From Escherichia coli (GTDB taxonomy: Bacteria > Pseudomonadota > Gammaproteobacteria > Enterobacterales > Enterobacteriaceae): a DNA stretch of 19,576 bases. This document shows positions 8,483 through 16,268 of this stretch, piece by piece. The stretch's first letter is position 1; the number at the start of each line of letters is the position of its first letter. The notes under the pieces are model-generated. The model did not search any database and was not told the DNA's origin. It was given only the letters and a program-made list of their open reading frames with translations. The DNA lies in the NCBI RefSeq assembly GCF_003334765.1, contig NZ_QOWT01000051.1; one strand, given 5' to 3'. The position numbers and the translations under genes were made by a program.

Positions 8483-9340
8483 TCAGGGGGAAGCTGTGGC
8501 CAGCCGGCTGTAATTGCGGTTACGCGACAGAATCATGCGCTCCTTCACACGACGCTCCACTTCACGTTTTACCGCCTCACGACTGGCAGTGAAGCGCCCT
8601 TCCGAGATTTCACGCGTCAGCTGTCGTTTCACCAGGGTGACGATATCCTGACGTTCCCTGCCCGCATCACGACGCGCACGGGCACGCTTTATTCCCCGGG
8701 ACTTAAGCTCTGTCTGGTAACTGCGGAAACGCTCACGCACAAAACGCCAGGCTTTCGCTATCAGTTCATCCATACCCAGGGTATCCAGCCCCTGCTTTTT
8801 GCGCTGTTTGTTTTCCCATACCACACGGCTGCGGCGCGCAGCTGCCACTGCATCCTCAGACACATCAAGGGCGGCAAACAGCGCCAGTGTGAACGTGATA
8901 TCGGTCGGAATGTAGCACCCGATAAGCGGGTCATATTCCGTCTGGTAGGTAATCAGTCCCAGCTCTGACAGGGACGTCAGGGCCCGGGTGGCCCGGGTGA
9001 TGGAGAGTTTTCCTGCACCGGACTCTGTCGCCAGTCCGCACTCAATGGCCAGCGTGGTGATGGAACACTGGACGCGGTTGGCCAGCGGGTCATAATGGAA
9101 ACACAGCCCCTGCAGCAGCGCATCAATAGCCCGTCGACGCAGCACCGGTGGCATGCGTCGACGCAGACCACGCGAACGGGCATGCGCCACATGAATAGCG
9201 AAATCAAAACGGGAGCTGAAGCCCACCGCTTTTTCCATCAGTTTTTCGCAGAACTTCAGCGTTCCGGCACCTTCACGGGGTGTGAACACCGGATTCGGGT
9301 TCTTTACCTGGCGGTAATACGTTTGGTGAAGATCAGTCAC
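8483..9340 (-). CDS. repA1: IncFII replication initiator RepA1
   Basis: Near-identical to the recalled R100/R1 RepA1 ([40 protein letters not shown]...[12 protein letters not shown]). The likely start is the GTG giving MTDLHQ (285 aa); the track ORF 8483..9352 begins four codons earlier. Confidence 0.95.
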
Positions 9341-9407
9341 ACCATCCTGCACTTATGTTGCACAGAAGGAGTGAGCACAGAAAGAAGTCTTGAACTTTTC
9401 CGGTCAT
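9333..9407 (-). CDS. tap: RepA leader peptide Tap (repA6), translationally coupled to repA1
   Basis: 24-codon [27 protein letters not shown] whose TGA overlaps the repA1 GTG start (GTGTGACTG); size and position match the IncFII tap peptide. Confidence 0.6.
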
Positions 9408-9418
9408 ATAACTATACT
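9390..9418 (+). promoter_or_regulatory. CopA antisense-RNA promoter
   Basis: -35 TTGAAC, 17-bp spacer, -10 TATACT, directed opposite to repA mRNA. Confidence 0.55.
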
Positions 9419-9425
9419 CCCCGCA

Positions 9426-9511
9426 TAGAGCAACAGCTTCTATGCAGTTTCTTGTTAGCCCCGGTAATCTTCTCTTAGTCGCCAAACCTGGTGAAGATTA
9501 TCGGGGTTTTT
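9426..9511 (+). ncRNA. copA: CopA-like antisense RNA (copy-number control)
   Basis: About 85 nt from the predicted start to an intrinsic terminator: long stem CCCCGGTAATCTTC/GAAGATTATCGGGG followed by TTTTT. Lies in the repA leader between copB and tap, antisense to repA mRNA. Confidence 0.6.
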
Positions 9512-9566
9512 GCTTTTCTGGCTCCTGTAGATCCACATCAGAACCAGTTCCCTGCCACCTTACGGC

Positions 9567-9578
9567 GTGGCCAGCCAC
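9567..9578. promoter_or_regulatory. Candidate CopB operator at the repA promoter
   Basis: Inverted repeat GTGGC-ca-GCCAC between copB and the CopA region, where CopB is known to repress PrepA in IncFII plasmids; exact promoter elements not resolved. Confidence 0.3.
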
Positions 9579-9644
9579 AAAATTCCTTAAACGATCAGTA
9601 ATCTAGCACTAATCTTCTGAACACTCAAGAATGTAAGCCCATCA

Positions 9645-9899
9645 TCACATGCATCGTTTTTGCGCTTCACTTTTTATCAGTGCGGTCAGAACTTCAGCCT
9701 GGGTCAGGCCATCTTCATTACACATTTGCATGAGCATGGCCTTATACTTTGGTTCGAGAAATACTTTTACTTCCTTGAACGAAGCTCTTTTACGGGCCAC
9801 TGATAATCTTTGTTTCTCTGCATCAGAAAGCGGATTCCCCTTTCTGTATGCTCGTTTTGCGCCAGATGAGGAAGTCACTGTATTTTCTGTCTGCGACAT
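9645..9899 (-). CDS. copB: Replication regulatory protein RepA2/CopB
   Basis: 84-aa ORF MSQTENTVTSSSGAKRAYRKGNPLSDAEKQRLSVARKRASFKEVKVF..., matching recalled IncFII CopB; upstream of the copA/tap/repA1 cassette. Confidence 0.9.
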   Translation of the reverse strand: MSQTENTVTSSSGAKRAYRKGNPLSDAEKQRLSVARKRASFKEVKVFLEPKYKAMLMQMCNEDGLTQAEVLTALIKSEAQKRCM

Positions 9900-10195: not shown

Positions 10196-10330
10196 TCAGG
10201 CCAGAGTTACCTGCACCACTGTATTTCCCCTGTGAATATTCAGTTCACATAACTGTTCCCTGAATATCAGTGAAAAACACAACACCGTGGCGCACACGGC
10301 AAGCAACCCGATAAGGGTATATTTCGTCAT
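10196..10330 (-). CDS. srnB: Hok/Gef-family type I toxin (SrnB-like), C-terminally shortened
   Basis: 44-codon ORF MTKYTLIGLLAVCATVLCFSLIFREQLCELNIHRGNTVVQVTLA, close to recalled F-plasmid SrnB. The canonical C-terminus LAYEARK is replaced by an early TGA; restoring 2 nt (CTGGCCT-AC-GAAGCACGGAAGTAA) would recreate it. Below the ORF-track length cutoff. Confidence 0.75.
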   Translation of the reverse strand: MTKYTLIGLLAVCATVLCFSLIFREQLCELNIHRGNTVVQVTLA

Positions 10331-10335
10331 AAACT

Positions 10336-10365
10336 TTGACATCTTTGCAAAGAAGAGGCTAGAAT
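10336..10365 (+). promoter_or_regulatory. Promoter for a Sok/SrnC-like antisense RNA
   Basis: Near-consensus -35 TTGACA, 18-bp spacer, -10 TAGAAT on the strand opposite the toxin, overlapping the toxin start and firing into its leader; the RNA 3' end was not located. Confidence 0.5.
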
Positions 10366-11150
10366 CAGTAGTGCATCATGCAGACCTCACGAGTTAATGG
10401 ATTAACGAGTGGGGTCTTCGCATTTCTGAAACCTGCGTCTTATTCAGCCATTCTTCGGTCATCTGCAGCAGTTTTCTTGCATCGTGACTTCTGAGCAACG
10501 GAATGCCAGCCTGCCTCAGAACCTCTTCCAGAAGAGTATCCCAGCATCTGCGTTCCGAACGTAAATGACTGTCATCAGCCAGCTATACTGCTGCAACAAT
10601 ACTGAACGAACGCCGTTCAACGATAACCACATCGACATGCACTGAGATACCATCCTGAATAACTGCCACCACTGGCGCGATCAGATATTAGTTGTCTGGA
10701 GATTCAGGGGACAACCTAACTTGAGCCCGCTATAGCGCGAAGCCGAAAATTATTGTTCGTATGCTCCCGCTGGTCCAGAATGGGAATTCCCTCTGGCTGA
10801 TGTTGAACTGTCATGGAGAATTGAAACTTGTTTAAGACTTTGGCAGCCTACTGTTTTTAATACACCCAATAAGGTATGAAGATGAAACTAGGGAAGTTAA
10901 TACCGCCATGAAAAGATAAATAATACCCGTGGAATATATTTCCTCATGTTACTCTCCATATCAAATAAATGGCACCTGTATTTCAGACATCCTGAATATT
11001 ACAGCACACATTGAACAACACCTTATTTTGTGAAATTAATCACAAAATATAAAATCACGACTTAATACGGAAAAAACTCTGTGCTACTCAGAACTGTCCG
11101 GTCATACTGCCCGACCGGATATTAAAAAAAGCAAATCTCATGCATTATTC

Positions 11151-11195
11151 AGCCTTCTGAATCCCTGGAGTAATGAAGGCTGCTTTTTTCGTTAC
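11151..11195 (+). terminator. Intrinsic terminator-like hairpin
   Basis: Stem CAGCCTTC/GAAGGCTG with a 17-nt loop followed by CTTTTTTC on the plus strand, after an AT-rich region with no convincing ORF. Confidence 0.3.
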
Positions 11196-11413
11196 ACCCT
11201 TCCCCGGCTGCGCCGGTGGCAGTGTTCAGCCCTTTTTCGGGCAAACTGCTGCCAGTCTGTCCGGGGCGCAACACCGGCAGCCCGTCGCCATGCTTCTGCC
11301 GCTTCCATCCAGCGTCCACTGACCTCCAGAATAACGGCCCGGCTTCCGGCACGCTGCCAGCGCCAGACCTGACCGTTCCGTGAACTGTTTCTGAATCCAT
11401 TCATCTTTATCAC
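11192..11413 (-). CDS. Hypothetical small protein downstream of finO
   Basis: 73-aa ORF (MIKMNGFRNSSRNGQVWRWQRAGSRAV...) in the position of the small conserved ORFs found downstream of finO in F-like plasmids; overlaps an alternative-frame ORF at 11149..11400; no recognisable motif. Confidence 0.3.
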   Translation of the reverse strand: MIKMNGFRNSSRNGQVWRWQRAGSRAVILEVSGRWMEAAEAWRRAAGVAPRTDWQQFARKRAEHCHRRSRGRV

Positions 11414-11535
11414 TCCTCTTTAACCCGTCAGTATTATGGTGTTAAATAATCTACTGAATTGGCTTCCTTTCGGGTACGGAAGTTATTTCCTTTTAAGCCT
11501 TATTTCCCTGCCTCCTCTCTGATGGAGGCTTTTTT

Positions 11536-12096
11536 TTATTTCTCATCAAGCACGGCCTGAAGTTCTGCCTTTATCCGGTTCTGGCGGCGGATTTTATCCA
11601 GACGCGCTGCGGCATACGCTTCCTCCTCCTGAGAAATATGCTCCGTCACATACCCTTCCGTGTCATACCGGCAGGCACCGGCTTTCATGGCACACAGATA
11701 GCTTTCTGAACGGGTGATGGCCTTCAGCGCCCTGCGCAGTTTTTTATGCGAGAGCGGGATATTCCGCTGCGCCACGTCTTCCAGTAACACGTCCCGGATA
11801 CCGCAGGCCAGAAGCCGGGGCGTGTCACCGTCAAACAATCCCGGCCACCAGGGTTTCAGGGTATTCACGGCCTCATCCAGCGTGGGCAGGTTCAGATAAA
11901 TGGACAGTGCCTGTCTGGCCTGCGCTTTTTTTGCCGCCAGCTCTGCTTCCCGGGCTGCTTTCTCGGCCAGCTTCTGCTTTTTCACCTTCCACTTTGGTGG
12001 CGTGGTGACATTGATGATGGTTTTCCGGCTGCGGACAGGCGTCTCCCCTTCCGTTTTCCGCTTCAGTGTCAGTACCGGTCGCTTCTGCTCTGTCAT
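11536..12096 (-). CDS. finO: Fertility inhibition protein FinO (ProQ/FinO-family RNA chaperone)
   Basis: 186-aa ORF essentially identical to recalled F/R100 FinO ([50 protein letters not shown]...). Confidence 0.95.
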
Positions 12097-12150
12097 GCTG
12101 TGTTCTGCCTCTGACGAATCATCCTGTTACGGTCAAAGATACCACACCCG

Positions 12151-12500
12151 TCACAGCGCCAGAACGCCCAGCACAGCCAGATGACAGGCGTAGAATACCG
12201 GGAAAAAATCCCCGGGCCAGAAACGGGGTAATGATTTTCCTGCACACGACACCAGACCAACGGTCAGCACCGTCATCAAAAGACCAGCCACCGCCGCTGC
12301 ATCACTGGTGGCAAGGTTAAGCGCCGGAATAACAGCCAGCAGGCAGGCGACCAGCGCCAGACGTTCCGCTCTGTCTTCCGCCCGGTACAGCCGGTGGCTG
12401 ACTGCCAGCATCAGCAGCCCGGCAATGCCGTAACTGGTGCCGGACAAGGGCCCCCACAGGGCCATCAGAAGAATGGCCGCTGCTGTACGCCACCCGGTCT
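12151..12500 (-). pseudogene. traX: traX 3' fragment (pilin acetylase), 5' part deleted
   Basis: Encodes GWRTAAAILLMALWGPLSGTSYGIAGLLMLAVSHRLYRAEDRAERLAL...FYACHLAVLGVLAL, matching the C-terminal 115 or so residues of F TraX. The frame is entered without a start codon at about 12498, where it abuts the traI fragment. Confidence 0.85.
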
Positions 12501-12951
12501 ATCACATAGCGGTCATGACTGCGTGTCTCCGGGTTCCACTGCTCCATCACCATCCCCGGACGGTACATATCCCGCAGATAACGGCTCCGGCTGTCCAGCC
12601 AGACCGGTGACAGTGCAGTCATGGTCACCTCAGGGTGTCCGAGCACGCCCTGCGTTTTCAGCTCACTGCGAATGGCCTGTGTCAGTATGGCCTGTTCCCG
12701 TACCCCGCTGACCTGTGCCACGCTCTCTTCTCCGGCTTTCACGCTGGCCGCAAAATCTCCGGCCAGCCGGGCATAGCGGACATTACGGTCCGGTTCACTG
12801 ATGATGGTGGCCGGTCGCTGTTCTCCCCCCTGCCAGCGATATGTGTTCACCCCGGCATCCTTCATGGCCATCAGCGCACTGCCTGTACCGGTTCGCTGCC
12901 CGCTGTCGGTTATCAGGACCTGTACGTTATGACGTGCGGCACCATCCAGCC
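12501..12951 (-). pseudogene. traI: Internal fragment of relaxase/helicase gene traI
   Basis: In-frame segment ARHNVQVLITDSGQRTGTGSALMAMKDAGVNTYRWQGGEQRPATIISEPDRNVRYARLAGDFAASVKAGEESVAQVSGVREQAILTQAIRSELKTQGVLGHPEVTMTALSPVWLDSRSRYLRDMYRPGMVMEQWNPETRSHDRYVIDRV matches recalled F TraI. Both flanks of track ORF 12317..13129 are out-of-frame read-through. No relaxase N-terminus and no oriT. Confidence 0.7.
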
Positions 12952-13280
12952 GGAATGATGCCACGCTCTGCCAGCATGTTGAGTGCTGCCAGTCGGCGAC
13001 CACCTGCGGCGACACCGTAACGGTCACCAGGCAGGGTATGCACGACCAGATTCTGCAACAGGCCAACGCCCTTAATGGACTCCGCCAGTTCGCTGACGGA
13101 CTCTGCGGAATACGGCACCGTGCGCACATTCAGCGGTGATTTAATCAGTGAAGCCAGCGGCACACTCACTTCCTCCGTCTGCGCCAGCAGGGCAGACAGG
13201 ACTGTTTCCTGCGTTTTTACAGATTTAAGGCTTGCTTTGCGGGTGGTTTCTGGTTCACACTTCGTTACAGGCATAATCAT
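12952..13280 (-). pseudogene. 5' fragment of a ParB-like nuclease-domain gene (F leading region)
   Basis: Track ORF 12927..13280: ParB/Srx-type N-terminal domain (GLLQNLVVHTLPGDRYGVAAGGRRLAALNMLAERGIIPA), then non-homologous residues and a stop right at the junction with the traI fragment. Full-length homologs are much longer. Confidence 0.6.
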
Positions 13281-13332
13281 CCCCTTATAATTGCTTATGT
13301 CCTGCCGGACGTTCGCGCGTCCGGCACCTCTC

Positions 13333-13593
13333 TTACTTAAGAATCCCGAAATCCCTGATGTACCGGTTCATCCAGTACCCGGCACAGTCCTCAAAATTCC
13401 AGGAGCGCCAGATCAACGTGCCATCCTGACGGGCAACCAGGCGAAAATGCGTTCCCTGATCATCCTCGATAAAGACATTCCGGTACTGTGCGGCAACGGC
13501 TTCAGCCTGTTCGCGGGTAAAGGAGCCGTCAGGCAGCCCCTGAAATATTCTGAAATATTCGCTCATCCTCATCTCTCCGGTGATGCCCCGCAC
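13333..13593 (-). CDS. Conserved small leading-region protein, function unknown
   Basis: 86-aa ORF ([86 protein letters not shown]) between the ssb remnant and the ParB-like fragment; no recognisable catalytic motif. Confidence 0.5.
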
Positions 13594-13621
13594 TGGACGG
13601 GGCGGTTGTCACTGTCTTAGT

Positions 13622-13885
13622 TCAGAACGGAATGTCGTCATCGAAGTCATACGCGGGTTCAGACGGCTGCTGAGGCTCCGGCTGCGCGGCCTTACGTCCA
13701 CGGCCTTTCGTTTTCGCGCCACCTTTTTTCGTCGCGTCAGCACTCTGTGGCTGCCCATTCTGCTGAGGCTTCGGTTGCGCCTGAGCGTTCTGCTGTGGTG
13801 CACTCCCCAGCATCTGCATGGTGCCCGTGGTCTTAACAAGAATTTCAGTGACGTAACGGGTGATACCGTTATCTTCCCAACTACG
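13622..13885 (-). pseudogene. ssb: ssb 3' remnant (plasmid SSB C-terminal region with acidic tail)
   Basis: Track ORF 13622..13924: from about residue 14 it matches the end of the SSB OB-fold and linker ([27 protein letters not shown]...) and ends with the hallmark tail DFDDDIPF. The first 13 residues are not SSB-like and the upstream 270 nt an SSB N-terminus would need are occupied by the methyltransferase gene. Confidence 0.7.
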
Positions 13886-13923
13886 GGCAGACGGGCATTT
13901 ATCCTCCCGCCAGCCCTGTGTCA

Positions 13924-14487
13924 TCAGGCACGCAGACGAATAATCATCGTCGGGACATCGGTATAAGCAAACGTGCCGCGCGGCAGCTCCTCGCGGACGT
14001 CAGAAAACGGTAACAGCTTCTCCTGCTGGCGCGGCCCGTTCAGACAGACGGCAACCAGCACGCCACCCGGACGCAACAGGGAAAAAGCCCGCAGGATATG
14101 CCGGATATCCTGCCCGTGACTGAACGGCGGATTCATGATAACCCGGCTGTAATACTGCACCGGCTGCCATTCCATGAAGTCGCCACACTGAACCCTGACA
14201 CCGTTAAAATTTTCCCGCAGATACCGGACCAGCCCGCTGTTAATCTCCACCGCATCACACATGGCCTCCGGCGCGGTATCCCGAATCGCCCGCAGTATGG
14301 CCCCGGTGCCGGCAGAGGGTTCCAGAATGTGATCACGGTTGCTGATTTCCGCCAGCGTCACCAGGCGATCACAGACCGGGGCAGGAGTCACAAAAAGCTG
14401 AGATTCAGCCCGGATTTCAGCAACCGGCGCGACGTTATCCAGCCTTGCACGCATCAGCCGGATACGTTCTCTTAACTGACTGTGCAT
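13924..14487 (-). CDS. Small class I SAM-dependent methyltransferase (leading-region orphan MTase, amino-MTase NPPF motif)
   Basis: 187-aa ORF with SAM-binding motif [12 protein letters not shown] and catalytic-type motif IMNPPFSHG; its stop overlaps the start of the ssb-remnant ORF. Substrate (DNA vs RNA) cannot be decided from sequence alone. Confidence 0.7.
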
Positions 14488-14533: not shown

Positions 14534-15895
14534 TTATTTCTGTGGGATTTCCGTGATTTTCATGTCGGTAATATACACATTCACCAGGCGGAAATTATTG
14601 TCCATTGTGCGGCGGTAGCGGTATGCCCCGTGGTCTTCTGTCTCTGCCACACTGCGCACGGCCTTACAGTCCCGGGGCAGGGCGGCCCACTGCGCCTTTG
14701 TCATTTCCCGGAAACCTTCCCCCGGATAGTTGACTACCGGCGGACGCTTCGCGGCCTGACTGGCGACGGCAGCCTCTTCTGCCGATGGTGCTTTGTAGTC
14801 CGTGATGCGATCGGGCGTCACTTTCATCGTGCCGCTGTACCCGAGAAAACTGTAATTCGGCGTTGTGACTGAACTCACCGCCCCGTTGCTTTTGTTCACG
14901 CGGATGATGGTCAGCCACTCGCCCCGGCTGAAAACCTGTCCGCCCGGCTCAAAATCCTGTGTCCGGGTAACCACGCCGCCGCTTTCGTCCAGCATGGCAC
15001 GCTCATAGATCAGGCGGTTCTGATAGTGGTTAACCCAGCGTTGCTGATGCTGAATCTGCCGTTCATGACAGCGGATCGCAATTTCGCGGGCCTGCTCCGT
15101 GGTGATGATGTCATCATCCAGGGCCGACCATAACGATCGACTTCCTTCATACTGGCTTTTTTCTGCCGGGCGCGGATACGTATCCAGCGGGAAACAGGCG
15201 CTGATATGGTCATGACTGCTGATGAGTTTTGCCATATTCAGATCCAGCGATTCAGCCCGCCACATCGTCAGATATTTCTGCGACTGCGCGATGGTCTTTT
15301 CAGCCTTGCGCAAATCAGCTTCGATTTTTTTGATACGACGCCAGCGAACGTCCGGGCGTTCTTTATACTTCGCGTGAAGCAGTGCCGACCGCGCCCGCTC
15401 CTCCCAGTATTCCGCACGTTCAAAGAGCATCACGGCACGTTTCATGCCGTTTTCAATACGCTGCGCATCACGACGGGCGCGGCGTTCGCTGTGATGCCCC
15501 ACAAGAATGGGCTGACCGGGCGGGATCATCGCGGCCAGTCTTTCCACTTCATCAAGTGCCTGTGCGGATTCACTGGCCCGCTTTCCGCTGTATCCGGTAA
15601 ACCGCTCCGCCCGTGCTTCCTGACGTTCAGCGAGCGTGCTGTCTTCATCCTCAATCTCTCCGGCAAGTGAGAGGAGCACGTCTTCCCGGCCCGGTGTCCA
15701 GGCTGGCGCGACAAACAGCGCCTGTTTGGGTGCCCAGCGAAAACCGGCATCATGCACTTTTTTATACGTCTCCGGGTCAAGACGTGACGCGGCATACAGG
15801 CGCAGTTTGTTGTCATCCGGTGAGTAGGTCGCGCGGTACATCTGCACAGGGCTGGCGGCTTCCGGGGCGGTCATGGTGATTGCTGCTAATGTCAT
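14534..15895 (-). CDS. Large conserved leading-region protein of unknown function
   Basis: 453-aa ORF, no transmembrane or catalytic motif recognisable by eye, charged and possibly coiled-coil central region. Position and orientation match conserved large ORFs of IncF leading regions; family not assigned. Confidence 0.55.
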   Translation of the reverse strand: MTLAAITMTAPEAASPVQMYRATYSPDDNKLRLYAASRLDPETYKKVHDAGFRWAPKQALFVAPAWTPGREDVLLSLAGEIEDEDSTLAERQEARAERFTGYSGKRASESAQALDEVERLAAMIPPGQPILVGHHSERRARRDAQRIENGMKRAVMLFERAEYWEERARSALLHAKYKERPDVRWRRIKKIEADLRKAEKTIAQSQKYLTMWRAESLDLNMAKLISSHDHISACFPLDTYPRPAEKSQYEGSRSLWSALDDDIITTEQAREIAIRCHERQIQHQQRWVNHYQNRLIYERAMLDESGGVVTRTQDFEPGGQVFSRGEWLTIIRVNKSNGAVSSVTTPNYSFLGYSGTMKVTPDRITDYKAPSAEEAAVASQAAKRPPVVNYPGEGFREMTKAQWAALPRDCKAVRSVAETEDHGAYRYRRTMDNNFRLVNVYITDMKITEIPQK

Positions 15896-15946: not shown

Positions 15947-16177
15947 TCAGTTAAAAGCGCGTTTCAGTTCGAGTGTGCGGAGCACCTGCCCGAAGGCCGT
16001 GTTTTTCATGGCGGGGATGTGTACACCACGCCCCCGGTGAAAACTCCGGGCTATGTGTCGCCCGAAGGCTTTCAGCACGGGGTCAATTTCCGGCGCGGGG
16101 ATGTCTTCGCGTCTGAAACGGGGATGACGGCGGGGCTTTACAGCCGCTGCGGAAGGTGAAACAATGCTTACAGTCAT
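15947..16177 (-). CDS. Hypothetical small basic protein
   Basis: 76-aa ORF upstream of the 453-aa gene on the same strand, overlapped by an 86-aa plus-strand ORF (15899..16159); coding status uncertain. Confidence 0.25.
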   Translation of the reverse strand: MTVSIVSPSAAAVKPRRHPRFRREDIPAPEIDPVLKAFGRHIARSFHRGRGVHIPAMKNTAFGQVLRTLELKRAFN

Positions 16178-16239
16178 AAATGGATTCCTTATGACAGTTT
16201 GGTAACAGTGCCTTAAAGACTGGTTGCACAGTCTCTTCG

Positions 16240-16268
16240 GCGTGGATTAAGCAGGTCCCTGACCTGCT
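16240..16268 (+). terminator. Terminator-like hairpin
   Basis: GCAGGTC-cct-GACCTGC followed by TTTTTTC on the plus strand. Confidence 0.3.

Follow-up and report, generated by a model that had tools for sequence, protein, structure and literature searches.

In the FinOP system of plasmids R6-5 and R100, FinO binds the terminator stem-loop and 3′ tail of the antisense RNA FinP, shields FinP from RNase E, and makes it pair faster with the mRNA of traJ. FinO is not allele-specific, as seen in the fi+ phenotype. In the F plasmid, finO is split by IS3. An orphan finO has been described on Shigella pINV (PMC6489325); finO has also been noted on pO157 (PMC2806823, PMC7175801), as have finO, traX and traI on O104:H4-type pAA plasmids (PMC9598891), and non-mobilizable Salmonella plasmids carry a finO pseudogene at a deletion border (PMC11229322). 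In addition, a protein of this family can act on the RNA of another replicon: FinO of the Salmonella plasmid pSLT has RepX, an RNA of the unrelated pRSF1010, as a ligand and influences the replication of that plasmid (El Mouali et al. 2021, PMC8136791). Here, we describe an intact finO on a 19,576-nt stretch of Escherichia coli DNA (contig NZ_QOWT01000051.1, assembly GCF_003334765.1), referred to below, at its full length, as “the window”. Orphan finO genes on decayed F-type plasmids are already known, and only the deletion layout described here is new.

The gene lies at 11536..12096 on the minus strand; the original prediction of an intact finO with its own frame at this place gave no strand. 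It is one ORF of 186 aa, with an ATG at 12096 and a TAA at 11538–11536; the frame has no internal stop and has the length of reference alleles. The product matches the NCBIfam model NF010317 (“fertility inhibition protein FinO”) over residues 1–186 of 186 (363 bits against a cutoff of 136, E 2.7e-109), and has the Pfam domains FinO_N (PF12602, residues 1–62, 2e-39) and ProQ/FinO (PF04352, residues 73–177, 3e-26). Compared with the crystallised R6-5 FinO (PDB 1DVO, residues 33–184), 148 of 152 residues are identical (~97%, E 1.5e-95), the four differences being A54T, L124M, A159V and A162E (window to 1DVO). These matches are far beyond chance, and the ORF, NCBIfam, Pfam and 1DVO evidence agrees in bearing out an intact finO. 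The protein resembles R6-5/R100 FinO in its 186-aa length, its FinO_N plus ProQ/FinO layout, and its PPKW motif with Trp36 and basic C-terminal helix residues, features that we take from the FinO structural literature to be important. From the ~97% identity to the characterised protein, we infer that the product would bind RNA, protect FinP from RNase E, and promote duplex formation.

The map position is also that of R6-5/R100 finO: the gene closes the distal end of an F-type tra region, with traX upstream of it and the RepFIIA replicon downstream. The order from finO to the replicon is collinear with that in two conjugative IncF plasmids, pE1246_1 (NZ_CP025574.1) and NZ_LS992194.1. Directly downstream of finO is a gene for an ANR-family small regulator (11192..11404, minus strand; NCBIfam NF033650; WP_001301409.1 in relatives), itself part of the conserved finO-to-RepFII backbone, followed by a hok-type toxin gene (10196..10342, minus strand), copB (9645..9899, minus strand), the CopA antisense RNA (9425..9515, plus strand; Rfam, 91 bits) and repA of the RepFIIA replicon (8483..9352, minus strand). 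The ANR and hok-type toxin genes are separated by a DUF2726 gene remnant (10441..10682). Near this remnant, the thermonuclease and hha genes of other F-like plasmids are missing, likewise in pE1246_1; since pE1246_1 lacks both, their loss is older than the tra deletions described below.

Several RNA signals surround finO. Antisense to the ANR gene is AS-pc02 (RF02876; 11111..11295, plus strand), which scores 214 bits (gathering score, 40). A strong intrinsic terminator (GCCUCC-8 nt-GGAGGC-U8; 11510..11537, plus strand) lies right against the finO stop codon; it is oriented towards finO and does not terminate finO itself. The finO–ANR spacer (11405–11540, plus strand) folds as two hairpins ending in this terminator, with a z-score of only −1.96, and a 28-codon hydrophobic ORF (11436..11522) overlaps the folded spacer. 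On the finO strand, a promoter scan revealed no consensus-like promoter upstream of finO, and no minus-strand terminator-like site lies between 13975 and 12097. The only visible route of finO transcription is therefore read-through from the leading-region genes, by which finO may be expressed. For comparison, finO mRNA is reported to be differentially expressed on pO157, which lacks tra (PMC11125564).

We mapped the deletions by blastn and three-way alignment against NZ_LS992194.1 and pE1246_1. Relative to pE1246_1, three deletions total about 39.7 kb, each with a short microhomology at its junction. The first (J1; 12491..12495, CACCC) joins the interior of traX to the interior of traI, with the loss of 3,670 bp (pE1246_1 116175–119844). 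The second (J2; 12947..12950, CAGC) joins the interior of traI to the leading region downstream of a DUF905-family gene, and is by far the largest, with 34,945 bp gone (pE1246_1 80767–115711). The third (J3; 13884..13887, CGGG) joins the interior of ssb to a point upstream of the end of a methyltransferase gene, with 1,088 bp gone (pE1246_1 78738–79825). By annotation and Rfam, the J2 interval in pE1246_1 holds the 5′ part of traI, traD through traY, traJ, FinP, traM, oriT, and leading-region genes such as psiB. It had been predicted that finP and traJ were both in the deleted region; synteny with the tra+ relatives agrees, placing traJ, FinP, traM and oriT in the 34.9-kb gap at ~12950. The microhomologies at J1–J3 are a sequence signature of illegitimate recombination, not of IS-mediated loss. 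With its near-identical tra+ comparator, the window is a clean case of microhomology-mediated deletion.

What is left of the transfer region is a set of fragments. A 54-nt spacer separates finO from a traX 3′ remnant (12151..12495, minus strand) of 345 nt, i.e., codons ~134–248 plus the stop codon, with the 5′ 402 nt deleted; tblastn matches TraX residues 134–249 at 97%, NCBIfam matches TraX 145–248 of 248, and blastn matches to NZ_LS992194.1 and pE1246_1 stop at 12495. Beyond J1 is an internal traI fragment (12496..12946, minus strand) of ~0.46 kb, corresponding approximately to TraI residues 520–675 of 1756, with both ends of the gene missing and hence no relaxase N-terminus; it is 98.5% identical to NZ_LS992194.1 and 99.1% identical to pE1246_1 by blastn, and NCBIfam TraI models match an internal stretch only. 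A 270-codon ORF (12317..13129, minus strand) spans these junctions, running from a leading-region start through the in-frame traI fragment into out-of-frame traX. We considered and rejected the assignment of this ORF as traX, since NCBIfam shows an internal TraI stretch (in residues 60–217 of the ORF only), as expected of a chimera made by deletion. Further upstream, the DUF905-family leading-region gene (13333..13566, minus strand) is 100% identical to pE1246_1 (extract L003, 8387–8620), and an ssb 3′ remnant (13622..13887, minus strand; 266 nt) encodes SSB residues ~86–175, as judged by the NCBIfam plasmid SSB model and blastn. The remnant sits in a 100-codon ORF born of J3 (13622..13924, minus strand), whose start overlaps the methyltransferase stop codon; the OB fold of plasmid SSB is missing from the product of this ORF, which consists solely of the disordered linker and the C-terminal tail. 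Two leading-region genes follow, for a SAM-methyltransferase (13924..14487, minus strand) and a DUF3560 protein (14534..15895, minus strand). Segmental tra loss that leaves border fragments, here of traX, traI and ssb, is also seen on other decayed conjugative plasmids (PMC11229322, PMC9185392). On the decayed Salmonella plasmid, finO is the border pseudogene, whereas in the window the border is ~400 nt upstream and finO is whole (PMC11229322).

The known partners of FinO are missing from the window. At the gathering score, CopA and AS-pc02 are the only Rfam matches; relaxing the cutoff to E ≤ 1 brings in a sub-threshold AS-pc01 match and a chance PK-repZ match, with neither FinP (RF00107) nor the traJ leader (RF00243) found in the window. 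This negative result is meaningful because the same models detect both RNAs, at ~93–121 bits, in two tra+ relatives. In tblastn searches of the window, TraJ, TraM and TraD gave only noise, TraX matched with residues 134–249 only, and TraI matched with an internal stretch only. Likewise, a 2.4-kb query of oriT-traM-finP-traJ DNA from a relative gave only noise in the window by blastn at word size 7. A complete finP/traJ locus beside finO, the observation that would have spoken against orphan status, was thus looked for in the window by Rfam, tblastn and blastn, and none was found. In contrast to the R6-5/R100 FinOP system, the locus has no FinP, no traJ mRNA leader, no traJ, and no tra operon to be controlled; instead, as in a decayed F-like plasmid, the window has remnants of transfer genes, while mating-pair genes, oriT and the relaxase domain are gone. 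Along the full length of the closest relative plasmid that is complete (82.5 kb), neither FinP nor the traJ leader was detected, and neither traJ nor traM is annotated. The conclusion that finO is an orphan in cis is thus supported both in the window and across this entire relative.

Among complete E. coli genomes, the window is matched best by virulence plasmids of the enteroaggregative pAA type: AF58 plasmid 2 (NZ_OZ547039.1), which carries aggR, aap, aatPABCD and AAF/I genes, pANT_425, and the pAA plasmids of IAL7252 and IAL7250. Judged by these matches, the window has the backbone of a pAA-type IncFII virulence plasmid from enteroaggregative E. coli. PLSDB and 5,426 complete genomes of E. 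coli yielded no record with the same set of junctions. We distinguish three deletion layouts on one near-identical pAA backbone. Type A is the layout of the window. In type B (AF58, pANT_425 and pB16EC0481-1), only 45 nt upstream of finO are kept; next come 676 bp that match neither reference and are annotated as fragments of TraC-family or coupling-protein genes, then a hok/sok segment and a truncated methyltransferase gene. In type C (IAL7252), 492 nt of traX and 2.6 kb of traI are joined to a truncated DUF3560 gene. We rejected the possibility that the layouts are nested derivatives of one another; because each keeps DNA that is missing from the others, they arose independently from a tra+ ancestor. 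The tra-side breakpoints of the three types lie 45–547 nt upstream of the finO start, whereas those on the leading-region side range asymmetrically wider, over ~7 kb (regions compared: window 12097–13930; L006, NZ_OZ547039.1, 11824–13830; L007 14097–21055; L008 6912–10070). In the regions that we read of other pAA relatives, tra is present as fragments only. The window adds another way in which self-transmissibility was lost from a pAA-type virulence plasmid. At another site (L005, 3401–3601), the pAA relatives have a gene for a further ANR member, Aar, which gives them two ANR paralogues. AF58 has a second F-type plasmid (NZ_OZ547040.1), and its two F-type plasmids encode identical FinO (WP_000139341.1) and ANR (WP_001301409.1) proteins; in the finO/ANR segment, the DNA of NZ_OZ547040.1 differs from that of the window at 19 of ~1,600 positions.

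Orphan finO genes are far from rare. Among the best 5,000 PLSDB matches to finO, 4,938 carry ≥80% of the gene, and 541 of the plasmids are typed as non-mobilizable and 506 as mobilizable, such that at least a fifth of the finO-bearing plasmids in this set are typed as non-conjugative. A probe spanning the ANR gene, finO, traX and the 3′ part of traI matches 4,079 records among complete E. coli genomes, 3,245 of which carry ≥80% of it. Among the remaining records, sampled at even steps, finO is truncated in H188 and H190, is an orphan with different breakpoints in H187 and H189, and is also found in the pO157 arrangement. We saw an orphan finO directly in AF58 plasmid 2, pANT_425, the IAL7252 pAA plasmid, pB16EC0481-1, ETEC1701 and S. 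flexneri pINV. In an ETEC AIDA-I plasmid, a TraU fragment is joined ~60–70 nt upstream of finO, and in S. flexneri pINV, traX, finO and the ANR gene are kept while the functional tra genes are gone. Like the window, pINV, pO157 and O104:H4-type pAA plasmids have an intact finO beside RepFII, with traX and fragments of traI or traD, and the rest of tra gone. Their breakpoints differ from those of the window, which has its own three-junction layout, and traX is truncated in the window but intact in pINV and pO157.

An intact gene on such a plasmid calls for an explanation, and the degree of identity to the tra+ comparator suggests a simple one. The window finO is identical to the copy of conjugative pE1246_1 at 560 of 561 nt, the single difference being synonymous; the 637 nt downstream of finO are 100% identical, the traX and traI remnants differ at 1 of 399 and 4 of 463 positions, respectively, and the leading-region flank is 99.96–100% identical. 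With finO one synonymous base from a tra+ copy, there has been no time for it to decay, and its open frame is therefore uninformative with regard to selection. Comparison of the layouts does not help, since finO has 0 of 561 nt differences among pAA plasmids with the three deletion layouts, and the comparison is thus uninformative on decay by point mutation. The gene is also close to the replicon, ~1.2 kb from the hok-type toxin gene and ~1.6 kb from copB; on the simplest reading, finO is intact because the deletion is recent and because it sits beside the RepFIIA replicon, which must be kept. We consider it probable that the intact finO is a relic of recent tra deletion with a target only in trans. 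The gene would be the last complete one of an F-type transfer region lost through three short-microhomology deletions, and its product would have no target in cis, given that FinP and traJ are not encoded on this plasmid segment. If FinO is expressed, its sole well-founded activity would be the allele-independent one, in trans: it would join the pool of FinO that represses any co-resident F-like plasmid with its own FinP. Of the two options put forward in the original prediction, neutral persistence is thus the better supported, by the recency of the deletion; the other, a role on other RNAs, fared worse, with no FinP-like RNA found in the window.

Activity in trans could itself have been the object of selection. 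Under this alternative, a non-transferable virulence plasmid keeps finO to damp the pili and transfer of co-resident or incoming F-like plasmids, and so cuts the cost and the male-specific phage sensitivity borne by the shared host. We judge this unlikely for the window, although some of the biology is in place: FinO is allele-independent, F-like plasmids supply their own FinP, and a finO transcript has been reported on pO157 (PMC11125564). Moreover, AF58, the host of the closest pAA relative, holds a 70-kb conjugative F-like plasmid (NZ_OZ547040.1) with traJ and FinP, so action in trans is possible there; however, that plasmid has an intact finO of its own encoding an identical protein, making the pAA copy redundant in that host. 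On four unrelated or independently deleted plasmids, finO is spared by margins of only ~45, ~70, ~400 and ~547 nt between its start codon and the upstream tra-side breakpoint, as erosion up to a selected boundary would give. Yet in the evenly stepped E. coli sample, breakpoints fall within finO (2 in 561 nt; H188 and H190) at a similar rate per base to traX plus the spacer (5 in ~800 nt), and the finO of non-mobilizable Salmonella plasmids is a pseudogene at the deletion border (PMC11229322). Pairwise dN/dS of finO is 0.11–0.17 even in comparisons with the long-orphaned pINV copy, values that hint at selection but that are low throughout the seven alleles compared and, with orphan and tra+ branches inseparable, are not assignable to the orphan branch; and the single synonymous difference from the tra+ copy leaves intactness silent on the matter. 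The broader proposal that the orphan finO genes of pAA, pINV, pO157 and ETEC plasmids are all kept by selection, with repeated independent tra deletions stopping short of finO because its product is of use in trans, either for damping the transfer, pili and phage sensitivity due to co-resident F-like plasmids or for controlling a FinP-like RNA of another replicon, strikes us as slightly more doubtful again. If orphan FinO were selected, virulence plasmids unable to transfer themselves would take an active part in regulating the conjugation of co-resident resistance plasmids, and the role of FinO would reach beyond the element that encodes it.

It is highly improbable, in our view, that FinO has been re-used for other RNAs so as to affect copy number or plasmid maintenance. 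The precedent is FinO of pSLT and its effect on pRSF1010, and several structured antisense RNAs are encoded near finO in the window; candidate targets on the same plasmid would be CopA, a hok-associated antisense RNA, AS-pc02 and the plus-strand two-hairpin element, or else, on another replicon, an IncQ RepX-like RNA. The precedent differs, however, in that pSLT keeps FinP and traJ, whereas neither a RepX-like nor a FinP-like RNA was detected in the window by Rfam at E ≤ 1 or by a hairpin scan, and FinO is highly selective, with FinP and RepX accounting for 99% of the sRNA reads in Salmonella RIP-seq (PMC8136791). FinO ligands have a purine-purine (A-G) mismatch below the terminator stem and an unpaired 3′ tail (PMC12001967). 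CopA has two stem-loops but an A-U pair where FinO ligands show the mismatch, the terminator at 11510–11537 is flanked by pyrimidines, and a crude hairpin scan of the window using an A...G flank rule yielded no candidate with the FinP-like layout of two stem-loops. The few hairpins flagged by this rule were rejected as FinO ligands, being short hairpins in coding regions or an artefactual sub-hairpin of CopA. Lastly, a traJ/finP locus could lie elsewhere on the same plasmid, beyond the 19.6-kb window, in which case finO would not be an orphan. The window is only part of a plasmid of likely 80–95 kb, and its exact junction set has no counterpart among the complete sequences searched. Nevertheless, we give this scarcely any chance: a clean deletion bounded by two short microhomologies has removed the interval that contains traJ and finP in the syntenic tra+ relative, the 82.5-kb relative lacks FinP, the traJ leader, and annotated traJ and traM throughout, and other pAA relatives have tra fragments only, in the regions read.

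Elsewhere in the window, the sub-threshold AS-pc01 match (16172–16272, plus strand; 72 bits, just under the gathering score of 79) lies beside a 76-codon ORF (15947..16177); AS-pc01 and AS-pc02 are antisense RNAs reportedly first described on plasmid pHK01. Positions 16407–16947 are one copy of a ~0.45–0.55-kb repeat (90–96% identity), of which F-like relatives have three or four copies in their leading regions (in pE1246_1 extract L003, at 3910–4377, 9231–9669 and 12631–13016). These repeats, annotated in relatives as frameshifted ssb-like pseudogenes, may be leading-region single-strand promoter repeats. An IS66-family element occupies 17013–19500, with a broken transposase frame (a 325-codon ORF at 17013..17990; tnpC is frameshifted in relatives), and conjugative pE1246_1 shares this insertion at the same site, which ties the two backbones together. 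At the other end of the window, a cargo block (239–5641) adjoins the replicon. It encodes a MocR-like aminotransferase-domain protein (239..1537, minus strand), a cytochrome bd-type oxidase pair (1817..3217 and 3217..4227, plus strand) that scores well under the cutoffs for chromosomal cydA/appC, a DUF2474 peptide, and a 393-codon ORF (4460..5641, minus strand) that is annotated in relatives as a frameshifted U32 peptidase.
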